In this document: positions 1,559 to 32,000 of the stretch, one piece after another
Layout of the letters: every line of letters begins with the position of its first letter
How positions within the stretch are numbered: position 1 is the stretch's first letter
NCBI GenBank assembly: GCA_016699935.1
Contig: CP064992.1
Span: forward strand, 240,001 to 272,000
Direction of reading: 5' to 3'
Length of the DNA stretch: 32,000 nucleotides
Source of the DNA: Candidatus Saccharimonadota bacterium
GTDB taxonomy: Bacteria > Patescibacteriota > Saccharimonadia > Saccharimonadales > UBA4665
Position numbers and translations under genes: made by a program
The notes under the pieces: model-generated
The model's input: the letters and a program-made list of their open reading frames with translations, nothing else
What the model was told of the DNA's origin: nothing
The model's database searches: none

Positions 1559-1568
1559 ACCTCCACCA

Positions 1569-1586: not shown

Positions 1587-1596
1587 CTATACCCTT

Positions 1597-3108
1597 ATGA
1601 CTACTCAAACAAATGAACGAATCGGTGATTTTGTGGCGCGAGTGCGCCAAGAACGTGGTATGACCCAGGCAGAACTAGCCAAGCGTCTTGGTACCAGCCA
1701 ATCAGCCATTAACCGCATAGAAAAAGGTGGCCAAAACTTGAGCCTCGAGACGCTTGGTCGGCTGAGCGAGGCGCTCAATAAGCAAATAATCTCACTTGGC
1801 AGCGGCTCGGTGAATTTGCGAATCGAAGGCGGCCATGAGCTACACGGTAATATCCAGCTCAAGACAAGTAAGAATGCCGCCGTGGGGCTACTGTGTGCCG
1901 CACTGCTCAATCACGGCACGACGAAATTTTTGAATTTCCCGCGCATCGAAGAAGTATTTCGTATAATCGAGGTTCTGGAAAGCATTGGCATCCAGGCAAA
2001 ATGGACAAACGGTAACGATCTAGAGCTGCGTCGACCCACCGAGCTCAGGCTCGACAAAATGGATAAAGATGCCGCTCGCAAAACACGAACGGTCATCATG
2101 ATGATGGGTCCGCTCATGCATGAATTTTCGCAGTTCAAGATTCCCTACGCCGGTGGCTGCAAGCTGGGTGAGCGGACGGTCGAACCGCATCTGTTTGCCC
2201 TGCAAGAATTTGGCTTAGGTGTCAAAGCTACGAGCGGTCACTACCAAGTTACTGTCACACCGAGACCAGCTGGCAGATTCGCGCTCTACGAGATGGGTGA
2301 TACTGTCACCGAAAATGCTCTCATGGCTGCAGCTGGGCGCGACGAGGAAACTACCATCGAATTGCCAGCGCCAACTACATGGTTCAGGACGTGTGTTTTC
2401 CTTCGAAACTTGGTGTCCGCATCGATGGCATCGGCACCAGTACGCTGCGCGTTCACGGTGTCAAAAACATCAAAAATATCACCTATGCGCCAGCCGAAGA
2501 TCCGATTGAAGCTATGTTTTCATAGCCGCCGCCGTTACGACAAATTCTGAGATTACCATTGAACGCGCCGATAGCCTTTGTTACGCTTGAGCTACTGAAG
2601 CTCAAGAAGATGGGTCTTCGTTATGAGGTTACCAATCGTTATCCTGCCGCAAATGGCAAGACAGAGCTCGTCGACCTGCACATCTTCAAGCACAATGGTG
2701 AGCTGCACGCCCTCGTAGACAAAATCCACTCCCTTCCCTTATCCTGGCGTCAATACCGATAATCTACCGTATTTTGTCCCAATCTGCGCCGTTGTAAAGG
2801 CCGCACCCTCATCCATGACTGGATGTACGAAAACCGAGCCATCTACTATACAGAAGTAACAAAAATTGGTGCAACCGTGGGCTCGCCGACCCGCACCGCG
2901 TGTACATCACTGGACCAACCAAGTTCACTCGTGCCGATGTGTTTTGCCCCCTGCCCTTCGTCCCGCTAGCCTGCTCCTCATCGGCATGCTAGCTGCTGAC
3001 GGCGTTTCTACACTGCGCAATATCTACACCATTCAGCGTGGCTATGAAGATCTCGCTGAACGCCTCAATAGCCTGGGTGCCCACATAGAAGTATTCCACG
3101 AAATCTAA
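1597..3108 (+). pseudogene. murA: XRE-family HTH domain fused to UDP-N-acetylglucosamine 1-carboxyvinyltransferase (MurA). As sequenced it is broken by about 7 frameshifts (fragments 1597-2550, 2559-2762, 2866-3108 and short pieces)
   Basis: The N-terminus IGDFVARVRQERGMTQAELAKRLGTSQSAINRIEKG is a classic HTH_3/XRE motif. It is followed by MurA: LRIEGGHELHGNIQLKTSKNAA, and active-site Cys in PYAGGCKLGERTVEPH. The rest of MurA (ENALMAAA.., IDGIGTSTLRVHGV, YPGVNTDNLPYF, IHDWMYENR, LADPHRVYITGP, LRPASLLLIGMLAADG, RGYEDLAERLNSLGA) is readable only by switching frame near 2360, 2518, 2568, 2742, 2797, 2881 and 2949. Most switch points are at homopolymers. Confidence 0.85.
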
Positions 3109-3118
3109 GAGTTCATTC

Positions 3119-3776
3119 CTAGATTCGCTTGTGATCGACATAGCTGAAATAGAAAAGCTGCCGGAATTCACTAAGGGTGGGCCCGGTACAGGTTTGCAGC
3201 ATGAGTCGTGATGGTCCGGTGTAGTTCAGTACGCCGATGTTTGTTGGGTCAACGACTTCGTGGCTAGCAAGTTTGTATGTAAAAACAAATCCCATGTCTG
3301 TTGTAATTGTGGCCTCTGCGCTTGGTTGAATCTTCAAAAGCGGCCCAAACACCCACGAGGTGGCATGACCGTAGATGAAGGTGTTTCCTCGCGCGAATTG
3401 GCAAGTTTGATGATGTGTCAAACTGAACTTTATCATTGTGCAGTGTCCAGGTTCTAGAAACGGTATCTACGACCCGTCTACTACGGGGAGGCTTATCCTA
3501 CGCTTGGAACATCCAGTTTGATGGGGCGTCCGATAGCAAACGGAACTGGAGGAGTAACCTTCGAGTAATCCGGCAGTGCAGCCGCATACGCCGTAAACTG
3601 CTTATCATACTCACGAATTGCCAGTGGATAAAAACACCACAAAATATTGCAACCATTACAAATAGATACACAGCAGAGCGTGTAAATCGGCTGAAGCGAC
3701 GTTTTTTATACTGTGGTTGGACACGCGCCTCAGCAAATAACGGTAGCTCGACAATTTGCTTATTCTTCCGCAACAT
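3119..3776 (-). pseudogene. sortase (transpeptidase), N-terminal TM anchor; at least 3 frameshifts as sequenced
   Basis: TM segment AVYLFVMVAIFCGVF; His motif GNTFIYGHA; catalytic TLxTC-type motif LMLQTCTGP in ORF 3119..3436. The middle part (IREYDKQFTAYAAALPDYSKVTPPVPFAIGRPIKLDVPSVG, then VVDTVSRTWTLHNDKVQF) is in other frames. The ATG at 3776 is preceded by TATAAT (3783-3788). Confidence 0.7.
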
Positions 3777-4200: not shown

Positions 4201-4709
4201 CTACTTGCCTATTGTCGAACGATATATTTTGTAAGCGTTGATGAAACCTTTAGTAAATTTATCAGGTTCTGCTGCCATCATTGTTATTAACTGACCCGGC
4301 GATAACCATTTTCCACCAGCAACTTCACCCTGGTCTAACGTTAAGGTTTGATCCGACACAGCGGTGTATAAAGTATTGAATCTTTTCATTATGCTGCCCT
4401 CGTATTCAAAATCGCTATAGTATCGTGTAACTTCATGCAGCTTAATGTTTTTGATACCGATCTCTTCGTATAATTCTCGCTTAGCTGCAGTAATATAGTC
4501 CTCGTCCTCGTCTACATGTCCCCCGGCAGATTGATCCCATAGTCCAGGATGGCTGACGTTTAGAGCGCGTTTTGTATAAATATTTGCCCTTTGGAATTAA
4601 ACAGCACTATTCGAACAATTCTAACAATTTGACCCTGACTTACTGCGTCTTGACGATCCATTGCACCAATGACATTGTCGTTCTTGTCTACAATTGCAAC
4701 TTTTGTCAT
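4201..4709 (-). CDS. Nudix hydrolase (one apparent frameshift)
   Basis: Nudix box GGHVDEDEDYITAAKRELYEEIGI. The N-terminal part MTKVAIVDKNDNVIGAMDRQDAV..IFIQ joins the 3' ORF (4201..4389) only after a frame change at the T4 run 4570-4573. Confidence 0.8.
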
Positions 4710-4825: not shown

Positions 4826-5488
4826 CTAGATGTTAAGTATAGCAGATACCCAACCCTTTAATCTACGGTAGAGACGCACACCTTTAGCTGTATCGCCTTC
4901 GCTTCTGACCGAGATACGTACAGTGCCATACGGTAATTTGCCGTTGTGTGAAATTGCTTTGCCAATTCTTCTATCTACCTGCGTTTTACCACATCGCAGA
5001 TTGGGAATGCCAATAATATTACGCCAATATTTCAGACATACTTCTTCGTCTGTTTCTGGATAGATATGCAGTGTCATGAAGATGTTTTCGTCTCGTAACC
5101 CACAGATCTCTTTTAGCCATCCTACCCACAGTCTCACAACATCTGGATCTGAGTTGGCAAGTCGTATTTGTTCTATCGTCTTTGATCCCTCACCAATCCA
5201 TAAACCGATACCGACCATCCACAAATCTCTCCTACTAATGTCGCCTACTTCATCTTTTCCTAGCTGTAATAGCTCTGCAATTTCGCATATTCTTTCATCC
5301 CGCTTTCTTATACCATATGCGTATCGTCCAGATTGAATTCTGTGCAATGCTTCAGCGTTTGGCGTGTACGGTCTTTCGCGAAACCAGCCGCTTAGCGTTG
5401 CCATAGGTACACCTAATTGGTTGTGGATCATACGGTATGAATAACCGCTGTCCCGAAGTTTTGTGGCAGCAATTCGATTTATATTCAC
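4826..5488 (-). CDS. HTH domain plus LAGLIDADG-like homing-endonuclease-like protein (hypothetical)
   Basis: N-terminal resolvase-type HTH (LRDSGYSYRMIHNQLGVPMATLSGWF). The motif LWMVGIGLWIGEGSK resembles the LAGLIDADG dodecapeptide. GTG start at 5488. The assignment rests on motif resemblance only. Confidence 0.5.
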   Translation of the reverse strand: MNINRIAATKLRDSGYSYRMIHNQLGVPMATLSGWFRERPYTPNAEALHRIQSGRYAYGIRKRDERICEIAELLQLGKDEVGDISRRDLWMVGIGLWIGEGSKTIEQIRLANSDPDVVRLWVGWLKEICGLRDENIFMTLHIYPETDEEVCLKYWRNIIGIPNLRCGKTQVDRRIGKAISHNGKLPYGTVRISVRSEGDTAKGVRLYRRLKGWVSAILNI

Positions 5489-10635: not shown

Positions 10636-10712
10636 TGGTCGGGAGACAGGATTTGAACCTGCGACCCGGCGGTCCCAAAACCGCGTGCGCTACCGGACTG
10701 CGCCACTCCCCG
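10636..10712 (-). tRNA. tRNA-Pro (anticodon UGG), CCA encoded
   Basis: CGGGGAG-TG-GCGC-AGTCCGGTA-GCGC, T-arm GCAGG-TTCAAAT-CCTGT. As sequenced the anticodon loop is 8 nt (TTTTGGGA) and the 3' acceptor strand is 6 nt (CTCCCG). Confidence 0.85.
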
Positions 10713-11481: not shown

Positions 11482-12066
11482 TCACGTATGCGCAGCTAGT
11501 GACATCGCAAGTAAAAAGACCGCGCAAAAGATTACTTCCAACAAAAATACATAACGCTTTAGGCGTTCAAGCACTAGTACGGCCACAAAGATACATGCCG
11601 TACCGAGAAATGCCAAGAACATAGCTTCTGCCCATGTGCTAAGGTACTTTGCAGATAGCGTAATGATCACTACCTCGGCTACCATACCAACCATTGTAAA
11701 CACCGCAAATGGAGTGTGCCATTTCGTATACACAGCGTTCGCTGGCAGCCATACAAACAGAAGTTCGCTCAAGAGCATTGGGACCAATATCCAGTAAAAT
11801 GCCTCTGAAATAACCATTCGTGGAGCTGCCCAAAACCAAACAAAACTGTAGTACACAGGAGCAATCACCGTCATGGAGAGAGAAAAGATACGACTTGATT
11901 TCGGCGAAGCTGCAATAGTATGACTGATAGTTTTCAAAAACGAACCATTACTTCGGTAATGCTTCGCTAGCAGCCCTGCCAGCAGCGCAAAAAACGGCAC
12001 CAGAATAATAAGGTCAACGTACTGCCAGAATGCGATAGGGACCGACGGAATCATACTGACTGCCAC
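11482..12066 (-). CDS. hypothetical polytopic membrane protein
   Basis: Intact 194-aa ORF, about 6 hydrophobic segments. No recognisable family. Confidence 0.55.
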   Translation of the reverse strand: MAVSMIPSVPIAFWQYVDLIILVPFFALLAGLLAKHYRSNGSFLKTISHTIAASPKSSRIFSLSMTVIAPVYYSFVWFWAAPRMVISEAFYWILVPMLLSELLFVWLPANAVYTKWHTPFAVFTMVGMVAEVVIITLSAKYLSTWAEAMFLAFLGTACIFVAVLVLERLKRYVFLLEVIFCAVFLLAMSLAAHT

Positions 12067-12851
12067 GCCTCGCGGATGTGTTTGGCGGTGCGGGCGCGGC
12101 CGGTGGTTTCGTCTACGTCAACTAGGAGAGCGCAAAACTGCATGCGGCCGGTGGTTTCGAGCTGATTGCGGGTCTGGTAGCCATCGCGCCAGCGTGGGAT
12201 GATTGAGCCAAATGTCACGCCCAGCGAGGATGTCGAGTGAGCCGCACATGCCAACATCGGTTATATGTGCGGTGCCTTTCGGTAAAATTTCCGTGTCGGC
12301 TGTGGGTACATGCCAGTGATCACCTATCACGGCTGATACGCGGCCATCAAGTAGTAACCGAACACGATCTTCTCGCTGCTAAAATCTCCATGAATATTGA
12401 CAATGCTCGCAGCATACGAACCGCGCGCTACAACGGCCAAGATTTCATCGATTTTCTTGAGCGGGTTTTCGGTCTCCACATCGGCATGTTTACCCACGAT
12501 ACTGCCAAGTCATGCTCACCACCAGCACGTTCCCATTCGGTGTTTCGACCAGCTTGTAGCCAGGGCCCGGACAACTAAGCATGTTGGCTGGCCCGACAAC
12601 CGGTTCAGCGGGGTTTTCTAAAAATGAAGTTAAATCCAGATACGGTTATGGTTCCCGCCTGAAAAAGCATGTACGCCGGCACGCTGCAACCGAGCCATAT
12701 CATCCGGCGACATACCCTTCCCGTCTGTGACGTTTTCAGCCTGTGCCACAACAAAATCAATATGCTCTGCAGCAACTAAACCAGGCAGCATCTTCTCGAC
12801 CGCTTGCATACCCATTTCGGCCATTACATCACCCACATAGAGAATTTTCAT
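12051..12851 (-). pseudogene. ymdB: YmdB-family metallophosphoesterase (2',3'-cyclic-nucleotide phosphodiesterase); at least 3 frameshifts as sequenced
   Basis: MKILYVGDVMAEMG..DFVVAQAENVTDGKG..GGNH, then [22 protein letters not shown]-like, and [28 protein letters not shown] in other frames. The ATG at 12851 is preceded by GGGTATACTATAGGT. Confidence 0.8.
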
Positions 12852-12914
12852 ACCTATAGTATACCCGAACCACCAGATTAACGATTTCTTTTGCCCCCTA
12901 AAACCTACAGCTTT

Positions 12915-13599: not shown

Positions 13600-16500
13600 C
13601 TAGCGCGCGGTTGTAAATGTCTGCTGCGCCTTCATGTAGTCAATGTCTACTGTCCTTGCGGTTGTGCCAATAGACTTTATGAGAAGTTGACCAAAACCAA
13701 GTGCCCGCGTAGTTCCCGTTGGAATGTTCGTGTTGCGAGTGCCGACATTCGTACCATTTATGTAGTATGTCACGAGCGTACCAGCGGAATTGACCTCAAC
13801 CCGAAGTTTATACCAGGTAGCTGCTGTAACCGCAGTCGTAGTAGTGTTGAATGTTCGAGTTGAGTTATTTGATGTCATAATCTGCCAGTTTGGAGTAGCT
13901 GCTGAACCGGTCGAGACGCCGCCCTCGTCGTACACAAAGGCAGCAGCATCAACTTGGTTGGCTGCCGTTGCCGTGTCAAGTAGACCAACAACTAGCTGGT
14001 AGCGCTGGGTAGCATCTGAAAGCGTGGCAATGTTGATCGCCGTTTCATACGCCATTGAACCTCCGCCAAGTGCGATAGCACTGGTACTCGACATAAAAGC
14101 TGTTCGCCCAGTTGCTGAAGTCCTGGTTGTGCTCCTGTACAACCCCGGACGATTCGCAGCTGTTGTGGCAGTAGCGGCCGTCGACCCCGTGGAGTTTGTG
14201 GCAAACACGTCAGATCCAGTGGTCGTTTCATTACCAATCAGATCGGTAAAGAAATAGTATGCTGTCGTTGTGTCTGTTTGGCTAGCGGGAGCCGATATAC
14301 AATCTTTCCATGTGCTGGACTCGTAGCACCGGAATTTCGCAAGCGACGTGTTGTAGTAGATAGCGCCGTTGGTTGCAAGCACATTGCCTTCTGTCGTAAT
14401 GGAGTCCAGTACTAGTGCGGCACCGGTCGCAATAGCGCTACCCGTATCACCTATGTATATATTGCCAGCGTCAGACACCTCAAAAGCAATCGTACCAGCA
14501 TCCTGGATTGCAAATTTCCCAGTTGAGTTTAGGTTTATATTGAAGTTATTCGCACCTAAGCTCACAGTAGTAGCAACGTCAAGACTAAGGGTGTCGCTAA
14601 GCTCTGTGAAGTTCAGGCTGTCAGGTGAGATATCTGCTGCGGCGATAGTACCATCAGTTATTTCGCCAGTTTCTATGGTTTGCCCGAGTTTCGTAACATT
14701 TGTGCTCAGCGCAGCATCTGCCACAGAACCCGTACCACTTATGGTCAACGCACCGGCGACATTGGCGTCGGTCAGTTCCGGTGTGAAAGTCAGTGAGCTG
14801 AGGTCAAAGGTGCCACTCGTGATGGTGCCTGTATTATCCCCATCGAAAATGAAAGCTTCCACGTTGGCTTCAGTGAGGTTATTATCTGCGGCGCAAGCTA
14901 GACATCGGTCGTTTCGTTCCACTTAAGAACCTGTGTGTCGGAGCAGCCCTGCAAAGACCAACCCCTGAAGCCAATATCTCAATACCTGAACCAGATGAAG
15001 CTGTTGCAGAGAGCGCATCTGTTGCAGCAAATGTTTTTATCGCAATGTCATCGGCATTTACCGTAATGCCGTTGCCAGCACCTATGTTGAGTGTGGTGGT
15101 TCCGCCAAGAAACAGCACCACCATTGGCTAGACCGTTACCAGCCGAAATCGTGAGTCCGCTATTGGCTAGCATCGTGTTGGTTACCCCGCCAGTACCTAT
15201 GCCCAATGTAAAGGGCGAGCCGCCAGTACCTGAGCCGCTTCGTGTCAGACCACCGCTAACTGTGGCGTCGGTGACTTCATTGCCTACTATGCCATCTGCT
15301 TCACTAGTAAGATAGCCGTTGTTGTTGGCGTAGGCATCGACTTGGGCTTCGTTCAGAACCGTATCGGTGTCTACGTCAGCGGCACAAGCCCAGACAGAAC
15401 CATTCCACTTGGCTATCTGGTTTGGACTACAGCTGAGACCAGCGAGGACATCAGTGTTGTCGAGGTAGCCAGACAGGTCAACACTCCCGCCATTGACGAG
15501 ACTGAGGCTGTTCCCGGCTAGACCGAGTGTTTGGGCGTCGGTGTTGTCTAGATACGGGCTGAGGTCAACGGTGCCGGCATTGCCAGAAATACTGAGGATG
15601 TCACTGGCAACTGAGATGTTTTGGGTGTCGGTGTTGTCTAGATAGCCTGCGAGCGAGACAGAGTTGCCGTTGCTAATACTCAGGCTGTTAGCGGCCAGGT
15701 TGAGGGTTTGCTGGTCGGTATCGGTGTCGGTGTCGACGTCTGCGGCACAGGCCCAGGCAGAACCGTTCCACTTGGCTATCTGGTTTGGACTACAGCTGAG
15801 GCTGGCTAGGGTGTCTGTATCAGTATCGTCGAGGTAGGGACTAAGGTCGATGGTACTGGCATTGCCAGTGATGGATACGGTGTTACCGGTGCGAGAGATA
15901 GCTTGAGAGTCTGTATTGTCGAGCAGGCTAGATTGGTCAGCCGTGTTGCCACCGGCAATCGTAAGAATCTGAGTACCAGGTTGTAGCTGAGAGTCTGGGC
16001 ATCCGTGTTATCGAGGTAGGCGCTGAGGTCTATGGTGCCAGGATCGCCACTGATGCTGAGAATATCTGCAACGAGGCTCAGGCTCTGGATTTCGTTCGTG
16101 ATGCTACCATCGACTTCGCTGGTAAGGTAGCCATTGTTGTTGGCGTAGGCATCGACCTGGACCTCATTGAGGACTGTATCGGTGTCTACGTCAGCGGCAC
16201 AAGCCCAGGCACTGCCGTTCCACTTGGCTATCTGGTTTGGTGAGCACGACAGACCGGCGAGGCTGTCGGTATCTATGCTGGATAGGTCAATCGTGTTACC
16301 GCCAGTAATAGACGGGTTGGTGCCGACCAGGCCAAGCGTCTGGGCATCGGTATTTATGGGTGCGAGATCGATGCTGTTGCCACCAGAGATAGTGAGGGTG
16401 GTGCCGACCAGGCCGACCGTCTGGGCGTCGGTGTTGTCTAGGTAGCTGGCGAGATCGACGGTAGATGCATTACCCGTAATGCTCAGGGTATCTCCTGCTA

Positions 16501-19500
16501 ATGAGATAGCTTGGGCATCCGTGTTGTCGAGCAAGCTGCCGAGGTCAGCCGTGTTGCCGCTGAGATAGTGAGGATGTGAGTGCCACTGTTCCAGCTGAGG
16601 GTTTGGGCATCGGTGTCTGTGTCTGTATCGGTGTCTACGTCAGCGGCACAAGCCCAGGCGGAACCGTTCCACTTGGCTATCTGGTTTGGACTACAGCTGA
16701 GACCAGCGAGGACATCAGTGTTGTCGAGGTAGCCAGACAGGTCAACACTCCCGCCATTGACGAGACTGAGGCTGTTCCCGGCTAGACCGAGTGTTTGGGC
16801 GTCGGTGTTGTCTAGATACGGGCTGAGGTCAACGGTGCCGGCATTGCCAGAAATACTGAGGATGTCACTGGCAACTGAGATAGCTTGGGTGTCGGTGTTG
16901 TCTAGATAGCCTGCGAGCGAGACAGAGTTGCCGTTGCTAATACTCAGGCTGTTAGCGGCCAGGTTGAGGTTTGCTGGTCGGTATCGGTGTCGGTGTCGAC
17001 GTCTGCGGCACAGGCCCAGGCAGAACCGTTCCACTTGGCTATCTGGTTAGGACTACAGCTGAGGCTAGCAAGGGTGTCGGTGTTGTCTAGGTAGGGACTA
17101 AGGTCTACTGTGCTAGCATTGCCGGTAATAGAGACTGTGTTGCCGGTGCGGGAGATAGCTTGAGTCTGTATTGTCGAGCAGGCTAGATAGGTCAGCCGTG
17201 TTGCCTCCGGCAATGGTAAGAATCTGTGTACCTGTGTTGTAGCTGAGTGTCTGAGCGTCGGTGTTGTCTAGATAGGGAGCCAGGTTAATGGTGCCCGGGT
17301 CACCGCTAATACTCAGGACATTGGCAACGAGGCTTAGGCTCTGGATTTCGTTCGTGATGCTACCATCGACTTCGCTGGTTAGGTAGCCGTTGTTGTTGGC
17401 GTAGGCGTCAACTTGGGCTTCGTTCAGGACGGTGTCAGTATCTACATCTGCGGCACAGGCCCAGGCAGAGCCGTTCCATTTGGCTATCTGGTTGGGTGAG
17501 CAAGATAGACCAGCTAGTACGTCGGTGTTTATGGAGGCGAGGTTAACGCCAGTGCCACCAGAAATGTTTAGTGTTGTACCGGCAAGGCTTAGGTTTTGGC
17601 TGTCGGTGTTTATGGGAGCGAGGTCGATGCTATTGCCACCAGAAATGGTCAGCGTTGTACCAACAAGTCCGACTGTCTGAGCGTCGGTGTTGTCTAGGTA
17701 GCTGGCAAGATCGACAGTAGATGCATTACCCGTAATGCTCAGGGTATTGCCTGCTTTGCTTATGGCTTGGGTGTCGGTGTTGTCTAGGTAGGGACTGAGG
17801 TCTACTGTGCCGGCACTACCGGTAATGCTAATGGTGTTGCCGGTGCGAGAGATAGTCTGAGCATCAGTGTTATCTAGCAGGCTGGATAGGTCAGCGGTAT
17901 TGCCACTAGAGATGGTTAGGATACGAGTGCCACTGTTCCAGGTGAGGGTTTGTAGCTCGTTGCTGGTGCTGCCATCAACCTCACTAGTCAGGTAGCCGTT
18001 GTTACTGACCCAAGCATCGACTTGGCCTTCATTGGTTACGGTGTCGTTATCTGCAGCACAGGCCCAGGCAGAACCATTCCATTTGGCTATCTGGCTAGTA
18101 CCACAAGCCAGGTTGGCGAGGACATCGGTGTTGTCTGAGGTAAGAGCCAGGTTAACCGAACCGCCATTTACCAGAGAGAGGGTGTTGCCTCCAAGTGAAA
18201 GTGACTGGGAGTCGGTGTTGTCTAGATACGGGCTGAGGTCAACGGTGCCGGCATTGCCAGAAATACTGAGGATGTCACTGGCAACTGAGATAGCTTGGGT
18301 GTCGGTGTTGTCTAGATAGCCTGCGAGCGAGACAGAGTTGCCGTTGCTAATACTCAGGCTGTTAGCGGCCAGGTTGAGGGTTTGCTGGTCGGTATCGGTG
18401 TCGGTGTCGACGTCTGCGGCACAGGCCCAAGCAGAGCCATTCCATTTGGCTATCTGGTTAGGACTACAGCTGAGGCTAGCAAGGGTGTCGGTGTTGTCTA
18501 GGTAGGGACTAAGGTCTACTGTGCTAGCATTGCCGGTAATAGAGACTGTGTTGCCGGTGCGGGAGATAGCTTGAGAGTCTGTATTGTCGAGCAGGCTAGA
18601 TAGGTCAGCCGTGTTGCCTCCGGCAATGGTAAGAATCTGTGTACCTGTGTTGTAGCTGAGTGTCTGAGCGTCGGTGTTGTCTAGATAGGGAGCCAGGTTA
18701 ATGGTGCCCGGGTCACCGCTAATACTCAGGACATTGGCAACGAGGCTTAGGCTCTGGATTTCGTTCGTGATGCTACCATCGACTTCGCTGGTTAGGTAGC
18801 CGTTGTTGTTGGCGTAGGCGTCAACTTGGGCTTCGTTCAGGACGGTGTCAGTATCTACATCTGCGGCACAGGCCCAGGCAGAGCCGTTCCATTTGGCTAT
18901 CTGGTTGGGTGAGCAAGATAGACCAGCTAGTACGTCGGTGTTTATGGAGGCGAGGTTAACGCCAGTGCCACCAGAAATGTTTAGTGTTGTACCGGCAAGG
19001 CTTAGGTTTTGGCTGTCGGTGTTTATGGGAGCGAGGTCGATGCTATTGCCACCAGAAATGGTCAGCGTTGTACCAACAAGTCCGACTGTCTGAGCGTCGG
19101 TGTTGTCTAGGTAGCTGGCAAGATCGACAGTAGATGCATTACCCGTAATGCTCAGGGTATTGCCTGCTTTGCTTATGGCTTGGGTGTCGGTGTTGTCTAG
19201 GTAGGGACTGAGGTCTACTGTGCCGGCACTACCGGTAATGCTAATGGTGTTGCCGGTGCGAGAGATAGTCTGAGCATCAGTGTTATCTAGCAGGCTGGAT
19301 AGGTCAGCGGTATTGCCACTAGAGATGGTTAGGATACGAGTGCCACTGTTCCAGGTGAGGGTTTGTAGCTCGTTGCTGGTGCTGCCATCAACCTCACTAG
19401 TCAGGTAGCCGTTGTTACTGACCCAAGCATCGACTTGGCCTTCATTGGTTACGGTGTCGTTATCTGCAGCACAGGCCCAGGCAGAACCATTCCATTTGGC

Positions 19501-20439
19501 TATCTGGCTAGTACCACAAGCCAGGTTGGCGAGGACATCGGTGTTGTCTGGGTAAGAAGCCAGGTTAACCGAACCGCCATTTACCAGAGAGAGGGTGTTG
19601 CCTCCAAGTGAAAGTGACTGGGAGTCGGTGTTGTCTAGATAGCCCGCAAGCGAAACGGAGTTGCCGTTTAGGATTGAGAGGTTGTTGGCTGCCAAGCTGA
19701 GCGTCTGGGCATCCGTAACCGCTGCTGGCGATGCACACGCCCAAGCACTACCATCCCACTGAGCAACCTGGCCAACCGTACAGCTTAAACTGGCTAGCAC
19801 ATCTGTGTTTATGGAAGCAAGATTGATAGTATTGCCACCACTCAATGAGAGGCTTGTCCCCGCGAGACCAAGCGTTTGATTGTCTGTATTGATAGGCGCA
19901 AGGTCTATACTGTTGCCACCAGCGATCGTCAGGATTGTTCCGGCCAAACCGACAGTTTGGGCGTCGGTGTTGTCCAGATAGCTACTAAGATCGACTGTCT
20001 GGGCAACGCCCGACAGTGCCAGTTTATTGCCCGTTTTTGAAAGCACCTGAGGATCCGACACTGCCGTAGTTAAGCTACCCAAGGTAACACTATTGCCGTT
20101 TGAAATACTGAGTACGCGCGTTTGCTCGTCCCATGACAGCACTTGACTGTTAGTTCCGCCCCCTGAAGCCTGAAGGTACGACCCCAGTTCGCCGTTTGCC
20201 TGAAGTTGTTCGAGGCCCATTTTGAGCTCAGCCGCTTGCTGCAATTTCTGTTGGGCAGTGATCTTTGAGTTCGCATTGCCAAGCCCACGCAAGTTTGATA
20301 TCGGATTACCAAACCGAGGATAAAACGTAAAAAGAATTAAAAAAACAATTACGGCCGTCGGTACCATGCGACTAAAGACGTATCGCCAGCGAAGCGTCTC
20401 ATTTTGCTGGTTTTTTGCTTGCGCTGAATCTGTTATCAT
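13600..20439 (-). CDS. giant repetitive surface protein (about 2280 aa if the frames are joined): N-terminal TM anchor, DNTD-type short repeats, at least 12 Cys-pair modules, C-terminal LamG/ConA-like domain. The largest intact ORFs are 17113..20439 and 13600..14922; about 7 frameshifts lie between 14900 and 17200
   Basis: N-terminal TM VPTAVIVFLILFTF. The unit GNT(L)SI(T)G(N)AS(T)VDL(S/A)xYLDNTD(A/T/S)Q recurs dozens of times. The module L(A)xLSC(S)PNQIAKWNGSAWACAADVDTD recurs at least 12 times. The C-terminus WYKLRVEVNSAGTLVTYYINGTNVG is typical of concanavalin/LamG jelly-rolls. ORFs 16944..17213, 16498..17034, 15806..16534, 14882..15124 and unlisted pieces carry the same repeats in shifted frames. 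Confidence 0.75.
16801..19640. repeat. two near-identical tandem copies of a ~1413-bp (471-codon) unit inside the giant gene; more diverged copies extend down to about 15300
   Basis: Identical 82-aa antisense ORFs at 17432..17680 and 18845..19093 (offset 1413). A line-by-line comparison shows identity, apart from a 2-nt (about 17165) and a 1-nt (about 16975) deletion in the lower copy. 15521-15640 matches 16775-16894 at an offset of about 1254. Confidence 0.9.
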
Positions 20440-20576
20440 GTCGGTTTTTTAGCTTATGGGTATGTGTTTACTAAGTGCTGTAAAAAATTATACGCTTATG
20501 GCTATTTTTTGCAACTTAATAACAGGGGTCTATCGTAGTAGTTTTTACTTCATAATATTGTCGACATCGGCATGAG

Positions 20577-21344: not shown

Positions 21345-22857
21345 CTACTTGGCGAATTCGATGGCGCGGGTTTCACGTATGACGTTGACTTTGATGGTAC
21401 CTGGGTAGTTCATGCTGCTTTCGATCTTGGTCGCGATGTCTCGAGCCAAGCGTATGGCACTAAGGTCATCAATCTGCTGTGGCCGCACAAAAACTCGGAC
21501 TTCACGGCCAGCGCTGATGGCATAGGACTTTTCGATACCTGGGAAACCATTGGCAATGTTTTCCAGCTCTTTCATGCGCTCACCGAAGTTTTCGGCTGAA
21601 ATGTTTCGCGCACCAGGTCGAGCTGCCGATATCGCATCGCATACACGGACAATTAGTGCTTCGACGCTTGTGGCCTCTACATCATCATGATGTTGTTCGG
21701 CTGCCAATGCAACTTCTTCTGGCGCACCGTATTTTCGCAGCATTTCACCTGATATGTGGTGGTGTTTGCCTTCTATTTTGTGTGTCAGTGCCTTGCCCAT
21801 GTCGTGCATAAGCGTGGCGTATTTGGTTACTTGTACGTTGGCTCCCAACTCTTCAGCCAGCATACCGGCCATGTGAGCCATTTCGGTGCTATGTTTGAGA
21901 ACGTTTTGGCCATAACTGGTTCGGAAACGCAACTCACCGAGTAGGTGCAGCAGTTCTTTTGGTATGCCGAGCACTCCAACCTCACGGGCGGCATCTTCAC
22001 CAGCCCGAACAACGTCTTTTTCGACATTTTTCTGAGCTTTTTCGACAACTTCTTCTATACGACCTGGGTGAACACGACCGTCTTTTAGTAGTAGTTCGAG
22101 TGCCTGGCGAGCCACTTCGCGGCGGACAGGGTCAAAACAGCTTAGGACTATGTAGCCAGGTGTATCATCAACCATTATGTCGACACCAGTAGCTCGCTGT
22201 AGCGCCTGGATATTACGACCTTCTTTGCCGATAATTCGACCCTTCATTTCCTCGTCTTCCAGCTTGACGCTGGTGAGAGTTCGCTCGGCGGTAACTTCGC
22301 TACTCATGCGCTCCATAGCTGTCACGATCAGTACACCCGCTTGGTCTTCGGCAGTTTCTTTGGCTTCGTTTTGCATCTTGGCGATCAGACCTGTTAGATC
22401 ATTTTTGATATCGCGCTCGGTCATTTGCATCAGCTTTTCGGCAGCATCGGCCTTGCTGAGCTTGGCAATTTTCTCTAGTTTTTCTTGTTGTTTGACGCGA
22501 ATATCACGTATTTCGTTTTTCAGCGCTTCAACTTCATCCTCGCCAGCACGTAGTTTTTCACTTCGTTTATCGAGCTCGTCGAGCTTTTTGTCGAGCGTGG
22601 TTTCGCGCTGAACGAGACGGTTTTCAAGATCTTTGAGCTCGTTACGACGTGTCTGTTCCTCTTTACGTGCCTCATCAGCCACCTTACGAGCCTCTTCACG
22701 GGCTTCATCGACTAGTTTATCGGCTTCTTTTTTGGCCTTAGCAAGTTCTTTGTTTGCTTTATCATCAGCTTCGGCTGACTTTTTTGCTTAGGTATGTACT
22801 GCCACCATAGCCAAGGCCAAGCCCTGCTACCGCGAGCAATATGGTAATTGGTTCCAT
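21345..22857 (-). CDS. rny: ribonuclease Y (one apparent frameshift near the N-terminus)
   Basis: KH domain GKEGRNIQALQRATGVDIMVDD; HD domain HSTEMAHMAGMLAEELG..LMHDMGKA. The N-terminal TM MEPITILLAVAGLGLGYGG starts at 22857 and joins the main ORF (21345..22682) after a shift at the T6 run 22780-22785. Confidence 0.9.
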
Positions 22858-23024: not shown

Positions 23025-24016
23025 TTATTGCAAGACTGCGTAGACAATTAGGCGCTGTTTGAGCGAGAACGTCCCGGAACTTGGCTACCCGCGCACGTGA
23101 TGAGCGTTAGCCCAGGCTTCGCTGTATCGGTGGAAACAAGCAAACGCGTCATGTCCACCTTATCCTTGTCGACGACCTGGACGTCGGCTACCTTGTATGT
23201 AAATACTTGTCCGTCGCCACGCTTAACCGATACATCGTCGCCAGCCACTAGCTTTGTTAGGTCATGGAAGATGCCCTGTGTCGCACCGATGCCCGAGTGC
23301 CCGTCTATGAGCATGGCTCCATTTTCTCCCGGCCGTGATGAGGCATTGTACCAGCCAGCATCGTAAATCCCGTACGGTGCTTGCAGCTCATTTTTCCGAT
23401 CAACCCCATGGATAGCACCCGGGCATGAACTTTCAGCTTTGGTATGTCTATGTAGCGCGGATTGACTGGCGACACAGCGTAACTTCGAACTGCCGCAGTC
23501 GATGGCTTTTCGGTCGATGGCGGAACTGTTTCATCAGTAGTGCCGGTTGTGTCGCCTTTAACTTGTGCGTGTTTCTGAAGCGTTTCAACCTGCACTGCTA
23601 CCTGTTTATTCACGTAAAGTCCACCTAGCCCAACGTACAAGCCCAGGCCAAATACCACAACTGCTGCCGCATACATGAATGTCTGTTTACGGAACAGCAC
23701 TTTTAGTTTTTCTTCGCCGTTTGGTTTTGGTGGATTTTGCCACACTGACATCTTGACGAGGCTGAATGGTTGCAGCGCTCTGAGCACTGTGTGGTCTCAT
23801 ATGCTTTGGCTTGACGTCCATATACTGACGGCTTACAAGTTTTTTACCAGTGTTTTGAAAAGAAATCTTTGGGTGCGACGGTTGTCTTCGGACTGCCGCA
23901 ATATCTTGGATGGTCCGCGTTTGCACCGGTCGTGGCACATAGGCAACACTACGGCGCTTATACCGTAGTGTTCCTGTGAAAACCTGATTGTCGAGCGTCA
24001 AACGCGCTTGCGACAT
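23025..24016 (-). pseudogene. sortase with a long N-terminal region and TM anchor; at least 3 frameshifts as sequenced
   Basis: TM FMYAAAVVVFGLGLYVGLGGL; IDIPKLKVHARV; His motif AMLIDGHSG; Cys motif LTLITCAG. The typical C-terminal RLIVYAVLQ is reached only after another shift (stop at 23025). It lies directly downstream of the putative substrate gene 24038..25648. Confidence 0.7.
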
Positions 24017-24037
24017 TGTATCTTCCTTTTTCGCTGT

Positions 24038-25648
24038 TTATTTACGTCGTCGAGCGTGTGCACGTGCAGGCGCAGGGCGAGTCTTGCGAGCCACACCTAT
24101 CAGTAGGAGTGCTGCCCCAGCAGTAACGACGAGAGTCAATACTGGATTGACACTAATGAGGGCAAAGCCCGTGTCTGGGGCTGTTGGCTGGTTCTGGACA
24201 GTTAGGGTCACGTCGTTTCCAGTACCGCCAACGTAGCTGATCTTAAACACCACACCATTTTGTGTAAATGTCGCACCTTCCGGAAGATCCTTAAACGTTC
24301 CTTGGATTGCTTGAGTACCAGCAACGTCGATGATAGTGAATACCTGTCCCTGCTTTGGCGTATAACCATTGTAGCGAGAAGTCGCCAGTGCTGCGTTTGC
24401 CCCGATAATAGTCGTTGGCGTTGTAGAAGTTGTGTTTGTTACCTTCAGCTGGTCATAACCAGTACAGGCATCAGTCCCGCCTAGCTCAAACTGATAAGTT
24501 CCGCTCAATGACATCGTATCTGAAGCTATGCATCCTGGACTATTGCCAGGAGCTACAGATGCACCCTCATTGATAAAGAGATTGAATATTTTTACACCAG
24601 TACCCTTCAATATCCCCCCAGCATATACGTTTATGCCTGAACGCTCACACCCATCATGAACAATGTATGTCTCATTTTGAGCGACATACACAAATTCCAA
24701 GGTATTTTTATCTGAACACTCGGTGGTCTTAACGGGCTGTACCACTGCCGTTCCGCCCACATTGAGCGTTCCTGAGCTCTCTGCAGTTTTAGTCAACTTT
24801 CCGCCTGTGACCGTCCCAGTCACATTCAAGGTAACTCCGTCTCCGACTCCTACGGCTGTATCGCCCGCCAATGTTATAGGATTACTCTGCGTATAGGTTA
24901 TAGGCTGGGTTGACAAACAGCTCATTCCCTGCCATTGTGTGCAATACGCCTCAAAGTCAATTCTTGAAGCAGTTGTGACGAGTTGTATTGGGAACGGTAG
25001 GGTCTTTGATGACATAGACACTGACGGGTAGTAGCGCACTATCATATCGTCACCAATCTTCAGGGCACCAATATTAGAAGTTTCGTCCATATATGTAACA
25101 CTTGGATTCAATAGATCATTGTCTTCTAAGGTCAGTGTTCCATCAATGTTATATTTTGTGTTTACCATGCCTTTGATTGTTACTGAGCCAGTGCTGGTAA
25201 TCGAGCCTTGAGTAAGACCGCCTTCTATCGAACCGGTTGCAACGTTAATGCCCAACTCCCCATTCGAACCCCTTGTTACATCTATAATCGCACCATCAGC
25301 CATTTTCAAGGTGCTAATCTGTATCCCGTAAACGTTGTTAGTGGTGATTGTACCCTTTGTCGTTTGAACTCCACCCAAGGCAACCGTCAAATCATTAATA
25401 ATTTCAGTTGCTGCAACATCTGGGAAAACGTCACTATTAAATGAAACTATATCGCCAGCCAGAGGCGCAGCACCACCACAGCCTGACCAGTTGGCTACGG
25501 TGCTAAATTTGTTGTCTGCGCCGCTGCCGGTCCAAGTACAGGTTTGGACGGCGGCATGGGCGATGCCCGTGAAGCCCATGGTTAGTAGCGTTGATAGCGA
25601 TAATACCGCTACGCTGGTGCCAGATACTACACGTCTGAGTAAATGCAT
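24038..25648 (-). CDS. secreted beta-strand-repeat surface protein with a C-terminal sortase-type sorting signal (APDTG + TM + basic tail)
   Basis: Signal peptide ..LLTMGFTGIAHA. The opening CTWTGSGADNKFSTVANWSG..PLAGDIVSF is like autotransporter-associated beta-strand repeat proteins, and FKISYVGGTGNDVTLTV fits the same type. The C-terminus is QPTAPDTG-FALISVNPVLTLVVTAGAALLLIGVA-RKTRPAPARAHARRRK. Confidence 0.7.
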   Translation of the reverse strand: MHLLRRVVSGTSVAVLSLSTLLTMGFTGIAHAAVQTCTWTGSGADNKFSTVANWSGCGGAAPLAGDIVSFNSDVFPDVAATEIINDLTVALGGVQTTKGTITTNNVYGIQISTLKMADGAIIDVTRGSNGELGINVATGSIEGGLTQGSITSTGSVTIKGMVNTKYNIDGTLTLEDNDLLNPSVTYMDETSNIGALKIGDDMIVRYYPSVSMSSKTLPFPIQLVTTASRIDFEAYCTQWQGMSCLSTQPITYTQSNPITLAGDTAVGVGDGVTLNVTGTVTGGKLTKTAESSGTLNVGGTAVVQPVKTTECSDKNTLEFVYVAQNETYIVHDGCERSGINVYAGGILKGTGVKIFNLFINEGASVAPGNSPGCIASDTMSLSGTYQFELGGTDACTGYDQLKVTNTTSTTPTTIIGANAALATSRYNGYTPKQGQVFTIIDVAGTQAIQGTFKDLPEGATFTQNGVVFKISYVGGTGNDVTLTVQNQPTAPDTGFALISVNPVLTLVVTAGAALLLIGVARKTRPAPARAHARRRK

Positions 25649-26153: not shown

Positions 26154-26629
26154 GTGTTAATATCCTCAAATAAATATGCTTGTTCGGAGTTATAGCTGCA
26201 AAAAAATTCCCGTGATTCATCGCCTATTTGATCGATGCGTATGGTTACCCGATTTTGCGGCAAAACCTCCTGAACAATTTCACCCCACTCAACCAGCACG
26301 ACAAAGTGTGGGTCACCAAGGTATTCGCGTAATTCTTCGGCCACAACACCAGCTTCAGCGAGACGATAAAAGTCGAAGTGGATGATGGTAAATTGCGGTG
26401 TTTTATATTCGCGACTAATGCTAAACGTTGGGCTGGCCACTCTATCTGTGCTACCGGCGCCCCGTGCTAGACCACGCACTAACGTCGTCTTGCCACCGCC
26501 CAAGTCGCTCACAAGCTCAATCACCTCACCGCCTTTCAGCCGCGCGCCTGTAGCTTCACCGAACGCCTCAGTGTCGACGGAGCTTGTGGAATGCATTTGC
26601 CAGGTCTTTTCGGTAGACATATGCTCCAT
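26150..26629 (-). CDS. tsaE: tRNA t6A biosynthesis ATPase TsaE
   Basis: Walker A LVSDLGGGKTTLVRGL, SPTFSISREY, HFDFYRL. The start could be an internal ATG (26620 or 26596). Confidence 0.85.
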   Translation of the reverse strand: MEHMSTEKTWQMHSTSSVDTEAFGEATGARLKGGEVIELVSDLGGGKTTLVRGLARGAGSTDRVASPTFSISREYKTPQFTIIHFDFYRLAEAGVVAEELREYLGDPHFVVLVEWGEIVQEVLPQNRVTIRIDQIGDESREFFCSYNSEQAYLFEDINT

Positions 26630-27959
26630 ATCCTACCGCGCAAGCTGCCACCAGGGCAAGCACACCAGGGTGTATGGCTGTCGGTTTCGGCAAGGCGCTA
26701 ACTTGCTTGGCTGGCGTAGCCGCCGTATCTTTTGCGTTTTGCGTGGTGGTTTTCGTCGTTTTCTTAGCACTCGTCGAAGCAGACTTAACCTTGGCGGCAG
26801 TTTTTGCTGTCACGACTTTTTTTATGGCTGTCGCCGGAAGGGTAATGGGTTGGGCGATGATATTGGTAGCGGCCTCCGTTGGCTTTGTGGTCCAGTACCA
26901 CGTACCATTTGCGAGCGCCCAGGCTTGGCCGTCAGGAGCTGAATCGTAGGGGTCGGACTGCGCCACAACCGTACCAGTACCATCGAGAAGAGTAGCTTGT
27001 CCGCTCGTATTGCTTAAGCTCAAGCTCGTTTGACTCGTGTAAAATGCCCGAAAGCTTTTGGGGGCAATGCTCAGGCCAGATGGAAATATATATGAATGCT
27101 TGGTAGCCAGCCCCGTCTGGAGCGTAAAACCAGAGAGATAAAACGGTGCGTCGTTTGCGTTCTACAGCTCAATATATTCGTCCGTGCCGTCCGTGCCAGT
27201 ACCTGCCGGATTCGGCAGCATCTCGGTTATAAGTGGGGGCGCTAAACCGGCGTTATCACCTGGGATGGCTGTATTATCAGGGGTGGCTTCAACTTCATTT
27301 ATGTTTTCAATGATTGCCGGCGGCTCTATAGCCGTCTGTACCCATTCGACAGTTTCACTTTGTGTACCGCTCGTGAGGGGCGCGAGGCTGAGCGTGCAAC
27401 CTACCAAGTTTCCAACGCGCCACGGTTTTACCATAGATGGATCGTGGTACCACACCGGGTAATTCATACCGGCGGTTTCTTTGCGCAGGTCCAGTGCTGC
27501 TGTTGTCGTCCCAGTTAATCCGGGCTTCGCCCAGTTCACACTATCGACAGTGGTGAATGTGCTCGAAAGGCCACTGCTCTGGAGCCGACGCACGACAAAG
27601 GTTCCCTTGGTATCAGCCAGTGATACAGACAGTTTTGTCACCAGTACCGCATCACACGTAGTAGCGCCGTCACTTGTCATTAAAAGGGCTTGACCAGTAG
27701 TTAGTGATCGCACTGGTAGTTGCTGCGATGGCACAATGGCGCCTGGATTTGCCGTATCGCTACCCGTGTAGCCAACCCAATATTCGCTGAGGTCAGGGAT
27801 GTCAGCCGTGGCCTGCAATACAACCAGCTCTTCTCCCGTGATTTTTATCTCGCGGATGATAAGCTGAGGCACAGCGACTGTTTCAGCTTGCACACTCAAC
27901 GGAACGAGCGTTATGAGTAATATCAGTCCCACCCTGAGGAATATTCTCAGGTATTTCAT
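26568..27959 (-). CDS. lamin-tail-domain (LTD) protein with signal peptide and C-terminal TM anchor, interrupted by one in-frame TAG (27162-27164)
   Basis: Signal peptide LILLITLVPLSVQA. The LTD signature LPNPAGTGTDGTDEYIEL-[TAG]-NANDAPFYLSGFTLQ shows that ORFs 27162..27959 and 26568..27023 are in the same frame (138 nt apart). C-terminal TM VLALVAACAVGYGAYVY. Confidence 0.7.
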
Positions 27960-28244
27960 AATTAGTTCCCAGTCTATGCCTCTCTAAAACCTATTGCAAG
28001 CACAGGCACAATAAAAATGTTTCTTTTTACAACGCCAACTCGGCATTGTTTATTTACATGCACATAAAATGCACGTACGTGCACGTTTTTTACGTTTTGT
28101 AGTGCTATGCGAACGTGGACTGTTCTGGTTGAGATGCGGGCACCATACCTATGACATACAAACAACTGACAAATGAGGTGTGGGGTTTTCTGTAATATGG
28201 GATCCTGCGCCTTCCTTTGTTGCAAACTGGTCTATACTATACAT

Positions 28245-28758
28245 ATGCTAAAACTCAGTGACAGTTTGATTGGGCGTCCGGTGATGAGTCTTCGTACTGG
28301 ACAACAAGCGGCCACGACGACTTCAGCGATAATTAACCCGAACAATCTCAAGATAGAAGGTTTTTACTGCGCCGATAAATTTAGCCGGAAAGAGCTTGTG
28401 CTCCTGTACCAAGACATCCGTGATGTTATCCCGCAAGGTCTAGTGGTGAACGACCACGACGTACTCGCAGATCCTGACGAACTTGTCCGGCTAAAGGAAG
28501 TTATGAGCATACGGTTTGAGCTCATCGGCAAGCAGGTTGCGACGCTCAGCAAGCAACGCCTCGAAAAGTGTCTGACTTCTCTGTAGAAGTAGAAACTATG
28601 TATGTACAGAAACTGTATGCCTCACGGGGATATTGAAGGGCCTTACGAAGGGTAATCTGGTGATAGATCGATCGCAAATAAATGAAATCACCGACAAAAA
28701 TATCATAGTCAACGACCCCCTAGACGCCGCCACTGTCCCCGCCGGCGCCGCCGCTTAA
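28245..28758 (+). pseudogene. PRC-barrel-like two-repeat protein; 2 frameshifts as sequenced
   Basis: LIGRPVMSLRTGQQAATTTSAIINPNNLKIEGFY and LIGKQVATLSKQRLGKVSDFSVEVETMYVQKLY resemble PRC-barrel repeats. The tail ..LKGLTKGNLVIDRSQINEITDKNIIVNDP is in a third frame. TATACT lies 6 nt before the ATG. Confidence 0.45.
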
Positions 28759-31197: not shown

Positions 31198-32000
31198 CTA
31201 TTCCTTTGTGGCGGCTTCGCGGACCTTGGCGGCTATTTCAGATTGGACTTTGGGGTTTTCTTGCAGATATGTCTTGGCAGCTTCACGTCCTTGGCCTATT
31301 TTCTCGCCGTTATAGGCAAACCAGGCACCAGCTTTTCGACAATGTTTTGCGTGACGGCTAGGTCAAGTATGTCGCCGGCAACCGAAATGCCTTGGTTATA
31401 CATTATGTCAAACTCGGCTTCGCGGAAGGGCGGGGCAATCTTGTTTTGACCACTTTCACCCGAGCGCGATTGCCTATAACTGCATCACCAGCTTTGATTT
31501 GCGAAATACGGCGTATATCCATCCTGACACTTGCGTAGAATTTAAGCGCGTTTCCACCGGTGGTAGTTTCTGGGTTACCAAACATAACACCAATCTTCAT
31601 GCGAATCTGGTTGATGAAAATGACGGTAGTTTTACTACGGCTTATAACCCCAGTTAGTTTACGCAAAGCCTGGCTCATGAGACGCGCTTGTAGTCCCATA
31701 TGGCTATCGCCCATGTCACCTTCTATCTCTGCACGGGGTACGAGTGCTGCAACAGAGTCAACAACGATAAGGTCGACGGCATTGGAGCGAACCAGCGTTT
31801 CGGTAATTTCAAGTGCTTGTTCCCCGTTATCTGGCTGACTGAGCAGCAAATTCTCAATATCCACACCAATGCGTTTGGCATATGAAGGGTCAAGTGCGTG
31901 TTCTGCGTCTATGAAAGCCGCTGTGCCACCGCGCTTTTGCACTTCGGCTATGGCGTGAAGAGTGAGCGTGGTTTTACCACTCGATTCCGGACCGTAAATC
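31198..32000 (-). CDS. recA: recombinase RecA; the N-terminus lies beyond the window edge; 2 apparent frameshifts in the C-terminal part
   Basis: Walker [10 protein letters not shown] at the window edge; [10 protein letters not shown]; [20 protein letters not shown]; [30 protein letters not shown]. The C-terminal [45 protein letters not shown] is readable after shifts at T4 runs 31444-31447 and 31333-31336. Confidence 0.9.

Follow-up and report, generated by a model that had tools for sequence, protein, structure and literature searches.

We analysed a window of 32,000 nucleotides from a Candidatus Saccharimonadota bacterium (assembly GCA_016699935.1, contig CP064992.1, forward-strand positions 240,001 to 272,000), with emphasis on its minus-strand region 13600-20439, where an earlier note, made from the sequence alone, had placed a giant anchored repeat protein. 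When translated with table 11, this region does not contain a single open reading frame (ORF); it consists of two ORFs, of 1108 and 440 amino acids, with fragments in other frames between them. The gene caller of the source genome likewise reported two separate proteins, of 1108 and 420 amino acids, on this contig of 1,226,308 bp. When the repeat copies were compared among themselves and to intact relatives, at least seven frame changes came to light, each a small indel, so that the claim of a single gene does not hold for the region as written. Once the frames are corrected, the product reads as one protein of about 2,280 amino acids, with no internal stop codon across about 1,190 corrected codons of the stitched frames. 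The start codon agrees with that of the orthologues (MQTDTEPY...LRWRYVFTRMVPTAVIVFF), and the annotated 1108-aa ORF (17113-20439) continues out of frame from position 17164 to 17113. The features of the locus are collected in Table 1.

Table 1. Features of the repeat-protein locus, in window coordinates and in the direction of transcription.
Feature	Position	Strand	Basis or remark
Promoter-like site, TTGCAA-16-TATAAT	20487..20514	-	10/12 match to the consensus only; about 48 nt 5' of the start codon; number of such sites in the region not above the shuffled expectation
In-frame first part, 1092 codons to the first frameshift	17164..20439	-	ORF scan and repeat comparison
N-terminal hydrophobic segment, residues ~19-45, RYVFSRMVPTAVIVFLILFTFYPRF	20305..20385	-	Kyte-Doolittle 19-residue maximum 2.1
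Span with 12 Cys-pair modules	14901..19803	-	xTDxLAxLxC-x4-Q(I/V)AKWNGSAWxCAxDxDT; DNTD/INTD repeats and six NE modules interspersed
First-Cys codons of the 12 modules	~19782, 19518, 18915, 18468, 18105, 17502, 17057, 16695, 16246, 15794, 15431, 14945	-	
Copy A of the 1067-bp perfect tandem duplication	18575..19641	-	
Copy B of the 1067-bp perfect duplication	17162..18228	-	Ends at the first frameshift
Frame-broken stalk part	14899..17163	-	Stop-free once frames are corrected
Frame change	near 17163	-	2-bp deletion, CTCT -> CT
Frame change	near 16968	-	1-bp deletion, CCC -> CC
Frame changes	near 16560 and 15979	-	1-bp deletions
Frame changes	near 15108 and 14900	-	Further shifts
Frame change	near 14954	-	TTTT -> TTT, inferred from the expected codons
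Junction motif FRCYESSTWKDC, 13th Cys pair, C-x8-C	14299..14334	-	End of the homology to orthologues whose tips differ
C-terminal tip, concanavalin A (ConA)-like beta-sandwich	13603..14262	-	Pfam, AlphaFold2 (AF2) and Foldseek
Pfam PF22237 (SO2946-like_C) match	13639-14154	-	95.8 bits against a gathering threshold of 27, E 3.6e-27

The corrected protein begins with a hydrophobic segment, preceded by basic residues, that alone in the whole sequence exceeds 1.6 in the Kyte-Doolittle profile and is highly conserved among the orthologues; we take it for either a signal anchor or a signal peptide that is not cleaved. Behind it, a short predicted helical stretch leads into a stalk of about 1,700 amino acids, which is followed by a non-repetitive neck of about 350 amino acids and by the C-terminal tip. 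The stalk carries about 40 repeats ending in DNTD or INTD, with 28 motifs of the strict form (Y/L/F/M/P)(L/P/M/S)D(N/D)TD and seven INTD variants, spaced 81-90 nucleotides (27-30 amino acids) apart. These units are predicted to be beta-hairpins, as the monomer AF2 model of the stalk gives hairpins and short helices at a pLDDT of 60; a Foldseek search with this model of 218 amino acids returned noise only (E>3). The composition of the protein is very acidic (226 Asp and Glu residues versus 53 Lys and Arg) and rich in Thr, Ser and Asn.

Interspersed among the DNTD repeats are 12 modules with paired cysteines, 11 of them intact and one (~14900-14960) split by frameshifts. When segments from eight proteins are aligned, the Cys module falls into register with a DNTD repeat. 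It has the look of a unit derived from that repeat, with the hairpin bracketed by two cysteines at a distance of 15 residues. All 26 cysteines of the protein fall into 13 local pairs. A third, helical element, the NE module (NE...NNGYLTSEVDGS, with the consensus NE(A/G)QVDA(Y/W)..NNGYLTSE), occurs six times. On a larger scale the stalk has a super-repeat period of 1413 bp (471 amino acids), with 1067 bp identical between two copies. The description of this part in the earlier note was in large measure accurate: the N-terminal segment (hydrophobic, and called a transmembrane helix in the note), at least 12 two-cysteine modules and the 471-aa unit are all there, as are dozens of repeats ending in DNTD. 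The period of 22-24 amino acids given for these repeats is nevertheless too short, and the statement that an NE module usually follows the Cys module is true of only six of the 12 modules.

The C-terminal tip can be assigned to a named family, Pfam PF22237 (SO2946-like_C), of which a structure has been solved (2A5Z). The match covers the whole model (1-163 of 163) and residues 257-428 of the 440-aa ORF. AF2, run on an alignment of 102 rows, predicts a beta-sandwich for residues 221-440, with pLDDT mostly above 90. The best Foldseek match of this model was again 2A5Z (2a5z_C; E 1.6e-10, probability 1.00, TM-score by target 0.66), followed by the L-lectin module of SraP, the CBM2 of the phage J-1 Dit protein and many legume lectins; for the legume lectins, the SraP L-lectin, the carbohydrate-recognition domain of Emp47p and the phage Dit CBM2, the probability was 1.00 and the TM-score by target 0.42-0.61. 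The predicted structure is thus that of the ConA-like lectin/glucanase fold class, a curved two-sheet jelly roll. At the level of fold, the earlier suggestion of a lectin-like jelly roll stands, but its likening to LamG has no counterpart in the sequence, where none of the LamG/Laminin_G models (PF00054, PF02210, PF13385) matched at E<=1 in the Pfam scan. Relatives with a bound ligand are 10-16% identical to the tip, which is too distant for the transfer of residues of carbohydrate or metal sites. In a viral library, the best matches of the tip were SO2946-like proteins of uncultured tailed phages (E 8.8e-23), among them some whose descriptions read 'Major tropism determinant' or 'Phage tail repeat'. 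Short secreted proteins also contain the SO2946-like_C domain, as do fusions with SGNH esterases. A literature search for SO2946 and for PF26696, a further family met among the relatives, yielded nothing useful.

Intact orthologues, each a single ORF of about 1,690-2,310 amino acids, occupy the same neighbourhood in four other assemblies (relatives are referred to below by our L and P numbers). P0002, with 1692 amino acids and 71% identity, lies on a 36-kb contig that shares the downstream genes, and three metagenome-assembled genomes labelled Saccharibacteria or Saccharimonadales contain open frames of about 1,850, 1,760 and 2,310 codons together with the shared upstream genes. The conserved surroundings comprise the genes for RNase Y and an aldose epimerase upstream, and a gene for a 177-aa protein, YmdB and a gene for a 202-aa protein downstream. 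A further intact relative, P0004 (1708 amino acids), shares the tip and has a different neighbourhood. The last 560 residues of the query align to the C-terminus of L004, P0004 and P0006, with 68-83% identity over about the last 530 amino acids. Since the corrected frames are collinear with these three proteins to the last residue, and since intact syntenic orthologues exist, we read the region as one gene.

Comparison of these sequences also revealed that the tip is exchangeable. Alignments of the query to L003, L005, L006 and P0007 stop at query residues 328-331, the end of the motif G.(I/M)YYN...FRC....W..C, and beyond this junction the four relatives carry unrelated heads of 130-170 amino acids. 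P0002 has a different head after the junction motif as well, and there an alignment of 39% identity extends about 100 residues further. The alternative heads of these five proteins are of two kinds, one ending with ...RNAYIQVR and the other with ...VVEAGN or ...EAIGP; no Pfam model matched any of them at E<=0.1. At least three types of tip are therefore distributed among eight sequences, mostly from one syntenic locus, with the junction fixed. Judged by these alignments, swapping of tips at a fixed junction is the pattern of receptor-binding proteins.

The stalk modules have a wider distribution. The 1108-aa ORF gave 993 significant matches among the scored candidates, and the DNTD and NNGYLT modules turn up often in proteins to which sources give a Bacteroidota name or which have type IX secretion system (T9SS) sorting, Peptidase_S74, Collar, C1q or YadA-head domains. 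Among the best 120 matches, the Cys module occurred only in N-terminally anchored proteins, several of them named Saccharibacteria or Patescibacteria, and in one protein with 24 tandem copies. A profile built from 74 Cys modules matched 6,402 representatives of clusters at 50% identity, 1,614 of them at E<=1e-10; a single protein can hold as many as about 35 copies. All named matches were 'hypothetical protein' entries of Myxococcales and Saccharibacteria, and matches in genomes included Elusimicrobia, Peribacteria, Gracilibacteria, Patescibacteria, Bdellovibrionota, Anaerolineae and Myxococcota. Outside the window, the proteins P0050 and P0241-P0245 consist almost wholly of tandem 29-aa Cys modules (24-32 copies, up to 4,676 amino acids); several have an N-terminal DUF7151, and the named ones are from Myxococcales. 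None of the three modules (DNTD repeat, Cys module, NE module) is covered by an entry in Pfam (2025), NCBIfam or the PDB, and searches of PDB sequences with the ORFs, the repeat-segment profile and the Cys-module profile gave no match. From these comparisons, the DNTD and Cys modules are unnamed yet abundant and not unique; the view that they are unrecognised holds with respect to named families and profiles, but they are not rare, as about 6,400 protein clusters contain the Cys module and matches in genomes span many phyla.

Some candidate assignments of the repeats were rejected. Matches of the 1108-aa ORF to DUF6087, HisKA_2, PilN and phrog_27442 in Pfam, NCBIfam and PHROGs are sub-threshold noise driven by repetition, with no individually significant stretch, and the same lack of a significant stretch led us not to rely on faint matches of CBM_5_12 and Galaxin_repeat to arrays of Cys modules. 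Precomputed annotation assigns PF26696 to many relatives, although not to the close orthologues P0002-P0008; to judge from the short proteins P0235, P0219 and P0226, it appears to represent the N-terminal motif 'TTxQRxAI..P..G..VYNT....W' and not the DNTD repeat.

The neighbourhood contains the genes that the earlier note had listed: two for sortases (3119-3436 and 23028-24019), one for a Lamin Tail Domain (LTD) protein (26571-28025) and one for a secreted protein with a sorting signal (24038-25648). The last of these, of 536 amino acids and encoded on the minus strand, ends with APDTG, a hydrophobic stretch and RKTRP, which constitute a sortase-type signal of non-canonical form; it had no Pfam match. 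Its gene adjoins the frameshifted sortase gene 23028-24019, also on the minus strand, a pairing that L004 and L005 retain. By this arrangement, the nearby sortases probably serve the 536-aa protein. They are unlikely to act on the repeat protein, because the latter, which ends ...TVDIDYMKAQQTFTTAR, has no C-terminal LPXTG-like motif, hydrophobic stretch or basic tail. The LTD protein (minus strand) is predicted to be secreted and is split into two ORFs; its L004 orthologue matches the Pfam LTD model with E 6e-13. Further away, a 220-aa ORF between the genes for tRNA-Gly and tRNA-Arg (4826-5488, minus strand) is, by eye, a candidate homing endonuclease of the LAGLIDADG type (GLWIGEGSK). One ORF at 1531-2550 (plus strand) joins a helix-turn-helix (HTH) domain of the XRE type (Pfam HTH_3, E 2.5e-16) to the first, N-terminal half of an EPSP-synthase/MurA-type domain, and the remainder of this enzyme continues out of frame to about 3108.

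Broken frames are not confined to the gene under study. The recA gene (31201-31999) is distributed over three frames, with 92-95% amino-acid identity kept in each segment; the sortase gene 23028-24019 falls into four segments; ymdB has paired frame shifts; glyA and the MurA-like gene have lost their C-terminal parts from the frame; and RNase Y lacks its first 60-70 residues, with 92-95% amino-acid identity in each frame segment. Because breaks of like kind occur across the window, in recA, ymdB, glyA, the sortase gene and a tRNA gene, we consider it very probable that the seven breaks in the repeat protein are consensus indel errors of a long-read assembly and not biology. The use of long reads is itself deduced from the size of the contig (1.23 Mb) and from its passing through the 1067-bp perfect repeat. 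By our own count, the density of breaks is about 0.8 per kb outside the gene and about 1.1 per kb inside it, and the indels that can be placed are contractions, by 1-2 bp, of short homopolymers or dinucleotide runs. Genes of the window that are split with respect to intact orthologues lie at 31201-31999, 28206-28725, 23028-24019, 12060-12866, 264-1313, 1531-3108, 21345-22712 and 4213-4700. The tRNA at 10637-10712 (minus strand), whose identity was returned by ARAGORN as undetermined with a two-base 'anticodon', scored 39 bits with Rfam, below the other three tRNAs; it probably has a deletion of one nucleotide in the anticodon loop, in line with indel errors. Two other accounts of the breaks were discarded. 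An alternative genetic code was raised by in-frame stops in the alignment of ymdB, but these stops sit in out-of-frame stretches between paired indels; phase variation by simple-sequence repeats does not fit, as the indel sites are runs of 2-4 bases and there are no long tracts. To judge from the window, this assembly seems to have about one small indel per kb, so that inference from it at the level of genes requires correction of the frames.

In the frame-corrected protein, and only there, a cell anchor, a tandem-repeat stalk and a terminal putative binding domain are united in one polypeptide. One plausible mechanism would begin with export through the Sec pathway and retention in the membrane by the N-terminal segment, after which the elongated stalk would hold the tip away from the cell. 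Local disulfides may join the paired cysteines outside the cell, and Ca2+, if bound by the acidic DNTD and DxDTD motifs, may stiffen the stalk. The fibre may also be a homotrimer, a possibility that we raise because relatives combine the same modules with trimer-forming domains: P0004, P0008, P0012 and P0028 have collagen triple-helix repeats directly after the anchor, and others carry Peptidase_S74 (P0010, P0094), C1q, phage Collar or YadA head domains. Collagen repeats, Peptidase_S74, C1q and Collar domains form trimers, as is established by structural work. The tip would then bind a glycan on the surface of a host bacterium, or some other substrate, and the protein would act as an adhesin whose specificity is altered by exchange of the tip. 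From its architecture, it is probably an attachment protein. Our best reading, which we hold to be somewhat more probable than its competitors taken together, is a fibrous, possibly trimeric adhesin. The proposal of an adhesin or attachment fibre made in the earlier note thus survives in its core, as the order of anchor, stalk and lectin-fold tip is borne out by the corrected protein, the intact orthologues, the AF2 model of the tip and the tip swapping; it does not survive as regards the single gene as given, the novelty of the tip or the rarity of the modules.

A number of points weigh against this reading. The deposited sequence does not encode the full protein, and the breaks are unevenly spread, with none in the first 3.3 kb and seven in the next 2.3 kb (Poisson probability about 0.02 under a uniform rate within the gene). 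The fold of the stalk, its disulfides and the trimer are predicted only, and AF2 modelled the 218-aa repeat segment (17-row alignment) with a pLDDT of 60 and a pTM of 0.23; moreover, the Pfam scan found no collagen, collar or Peptidase_S74 domain in this protein itself. We know of no SO2946-like_C domain with a known ligand, and 2A5Z was deposited as a protein of unknown function. In the literature on adhesins of Saccharibacteria and Patescibacteria, we found no experimental data that tie the family to attachment. The clustering of the breaks in the 3' 2.3 kb of the repeat region, like the separate annotation of the 1108-aa and 420-aa proteins, would be expected of a true pseudogene or truncated gene, from which only the anchor and part of the stalk, without the tip, or nothing functional would be made while the downstream 3.5 kb decay. 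Yet recA, the RNase Y gene, ymdB, glyA and a tRNA gene within the same 32 kb are broken comparably and at a similar density, the indels lie in short homopolymers typical of consensus error, the corrected frames are free of stops, and the tip keeps its full length and its identity to intact orthologues. Judged from the assembly, a real truncation to 1108 amino acids, and with it a pseudogene, is unlikely. The repeat region might also be an artefact of assembly, with its 1.4-kb units collapsed, expanded or chimeric, in which case neither the length of about 2,280 amino acids nor the number of 12 Cys modules would be real. The perfect identity of the two 1067-bp copies, the 81-98% identity of further copies and the visibly poor consensus throughout the window suit this explanation. 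Independently assembled orthologues, which have internal DNA repeats too, nonetheless cover the same range of sizes and module counts (L005: about 2,310 amino acids, 12 Cys modules and 27 DNTD motifs), the order of units is collinear with P0002, and a contig of 1.23 Mb implies reads able to span 1.4 kb. We regard such an artefact as rather unlikely.

The remaining alternatives concern what kind of protein is encoded. The frequency of the tip domain in proteins of uncultured tailed phages, the Peptidase_S74 and Collar domains of relatives and weak PHROG matches might suggest a tail fibre of prophage or phage origin in place of a cellular surface protein. It is difficult to reconcile this with the housekeeping genes on both sides (RNase Y, aldose epimerase, YmdB), whose synteny is kept in at least four other assemblies, with the conserved N-terminal membrane anchor, with neighbouring genes of which none is of phage type, and with a tblastn search of the repeat segment against 50,697 phage genomes that returned zero matches; a phage fibre is hence highly improbable. 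A structural protein of the envelope or matrix (an S-layer-like coat, a spacer or a component of biofilm matrix), with the tip bound to the wall polysaccharide of the cell itself, would agree with the very acidic, Thr/Ser/Asn-rich composition seen in many envelope proteins, and the presence of SO2946-like_C in SGNH esterase fusions and short secreted proteins indicates that host recognition is not obligatory for this domain. Anchoring at the N-terminus, however, would place the lectin tip distal to the cell, and exchange of tips at a fixed junction is the pattern of receptor binding and not of structural self-binding. We find this alternative improbable. It is on balance probable, in our judgement, that the frame-corrected locus encodes one cell-surface fibre of about 2,280 amino acids, serving as an adhesin, in a very small, parasitic member of the Saccharimonadales (Saccharibacteria/TM7, Patescibacteria).

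Such a fibre would resemble several known systems without coinciding with any of them. Its C-terminal 220 or so amino acids match SO2946 of Shewanella oneidensis (2A5Z, PF22237) in family and fold, but that is a stand-alone protein of about 240 amino acids, whereas here the domain is the tip of an anchored repeat protein. SraP of Staphylococcus aureus (4M00/4M01), a monoderm surface adhesin, likewise has a ConA-like lectin module on a very long repetitive stalk, and its L-lectin was the third-ranked structural match to the tip (E 5e-8). SraP differs, though, in having a C-terminal LPXTG/sortase anchor, a glycosylated Ser-rich stalk and a lectin near the N-terminus, while our protein has an N-terminal anchor, a C-terminal tip, unrelated stalk modules and about 12% identity to it. 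The stalk is also like that of proteins named as Bacteroidota or bearing T9SS sorting domains and annotated as 'beta strand repeat-containing' or 'tail fiber domain-containing' (for example P0041 of Tenacibaculum and P0094 of Saprospira), which share the DNTD repeat and the motif (L/N)xE(A)xVDxYxxNNGYLTSEVDGS at 30-45% identity over hundreds of residues; the signal peptides of these proteins are cleavable and their C-termini are of the T9SS sorting or Peptidase_S74 type, and by the regular expression used they lack both the N-terminal anchor and the Cys-pair module. With tail fibres and receptor-binding proteins of phages the protein has in common a long fibre of short beta repeats, a distal domain swapped at a conserved junction and the fold of the tip. 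It differs from them in that the gene is chromosomal, stands in housekeeping synteny and encodes a membrane-anchored product, and in that there are no virion genes nearby, no intramolecular chaperone and no match of the stalk in phage genomes. Fibrillar adhesins in general are built on the same plan, with an anchor, a stalk of repeats and a binding domain at the end; their stalk units are Ig-like or other domains of about 100 amino acids, in contrast to hairpins of 27-30 amino acids that have no counterpart in Pfam or the PDB, and the anchor here is an N-terminal hydrophobic segment.

Every member of the Saccharibacteria in cultivation lives, to our knowledge, in attachment to a bacterial host. 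Attachment has so far been linked to type IV pili and a small number of adhesins (PMC12206443, PMC10633639), and epibiotic growth is reported to need type IV pili together with several adhesins, lectin-like proteins included (PMC12206443, PMC10633639, PMC11880426); a description of the present family was not found in these three papers. A more far-reaching possibility, which we put forward tentatively and with considerable doubt, is that the syntenic genes of Saccharimonadales form a family resembling tail fibres, in which exchangeable heads, of three types among eight sequences, would set the choice of host as a cellular analogue of the receptor-binding proteins of phages, and in which the Cys hairpin would be a new, disulfide-clamped stalk module. 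Definition of the DNTD and Cys-pair modules would improve the annotation of thousands of giant proteins now called 'hypothetical'. For the organism itself, a long fibre with a tip of lectin fold, exchanged among close relatives, would be a testable candidate for host recognition.

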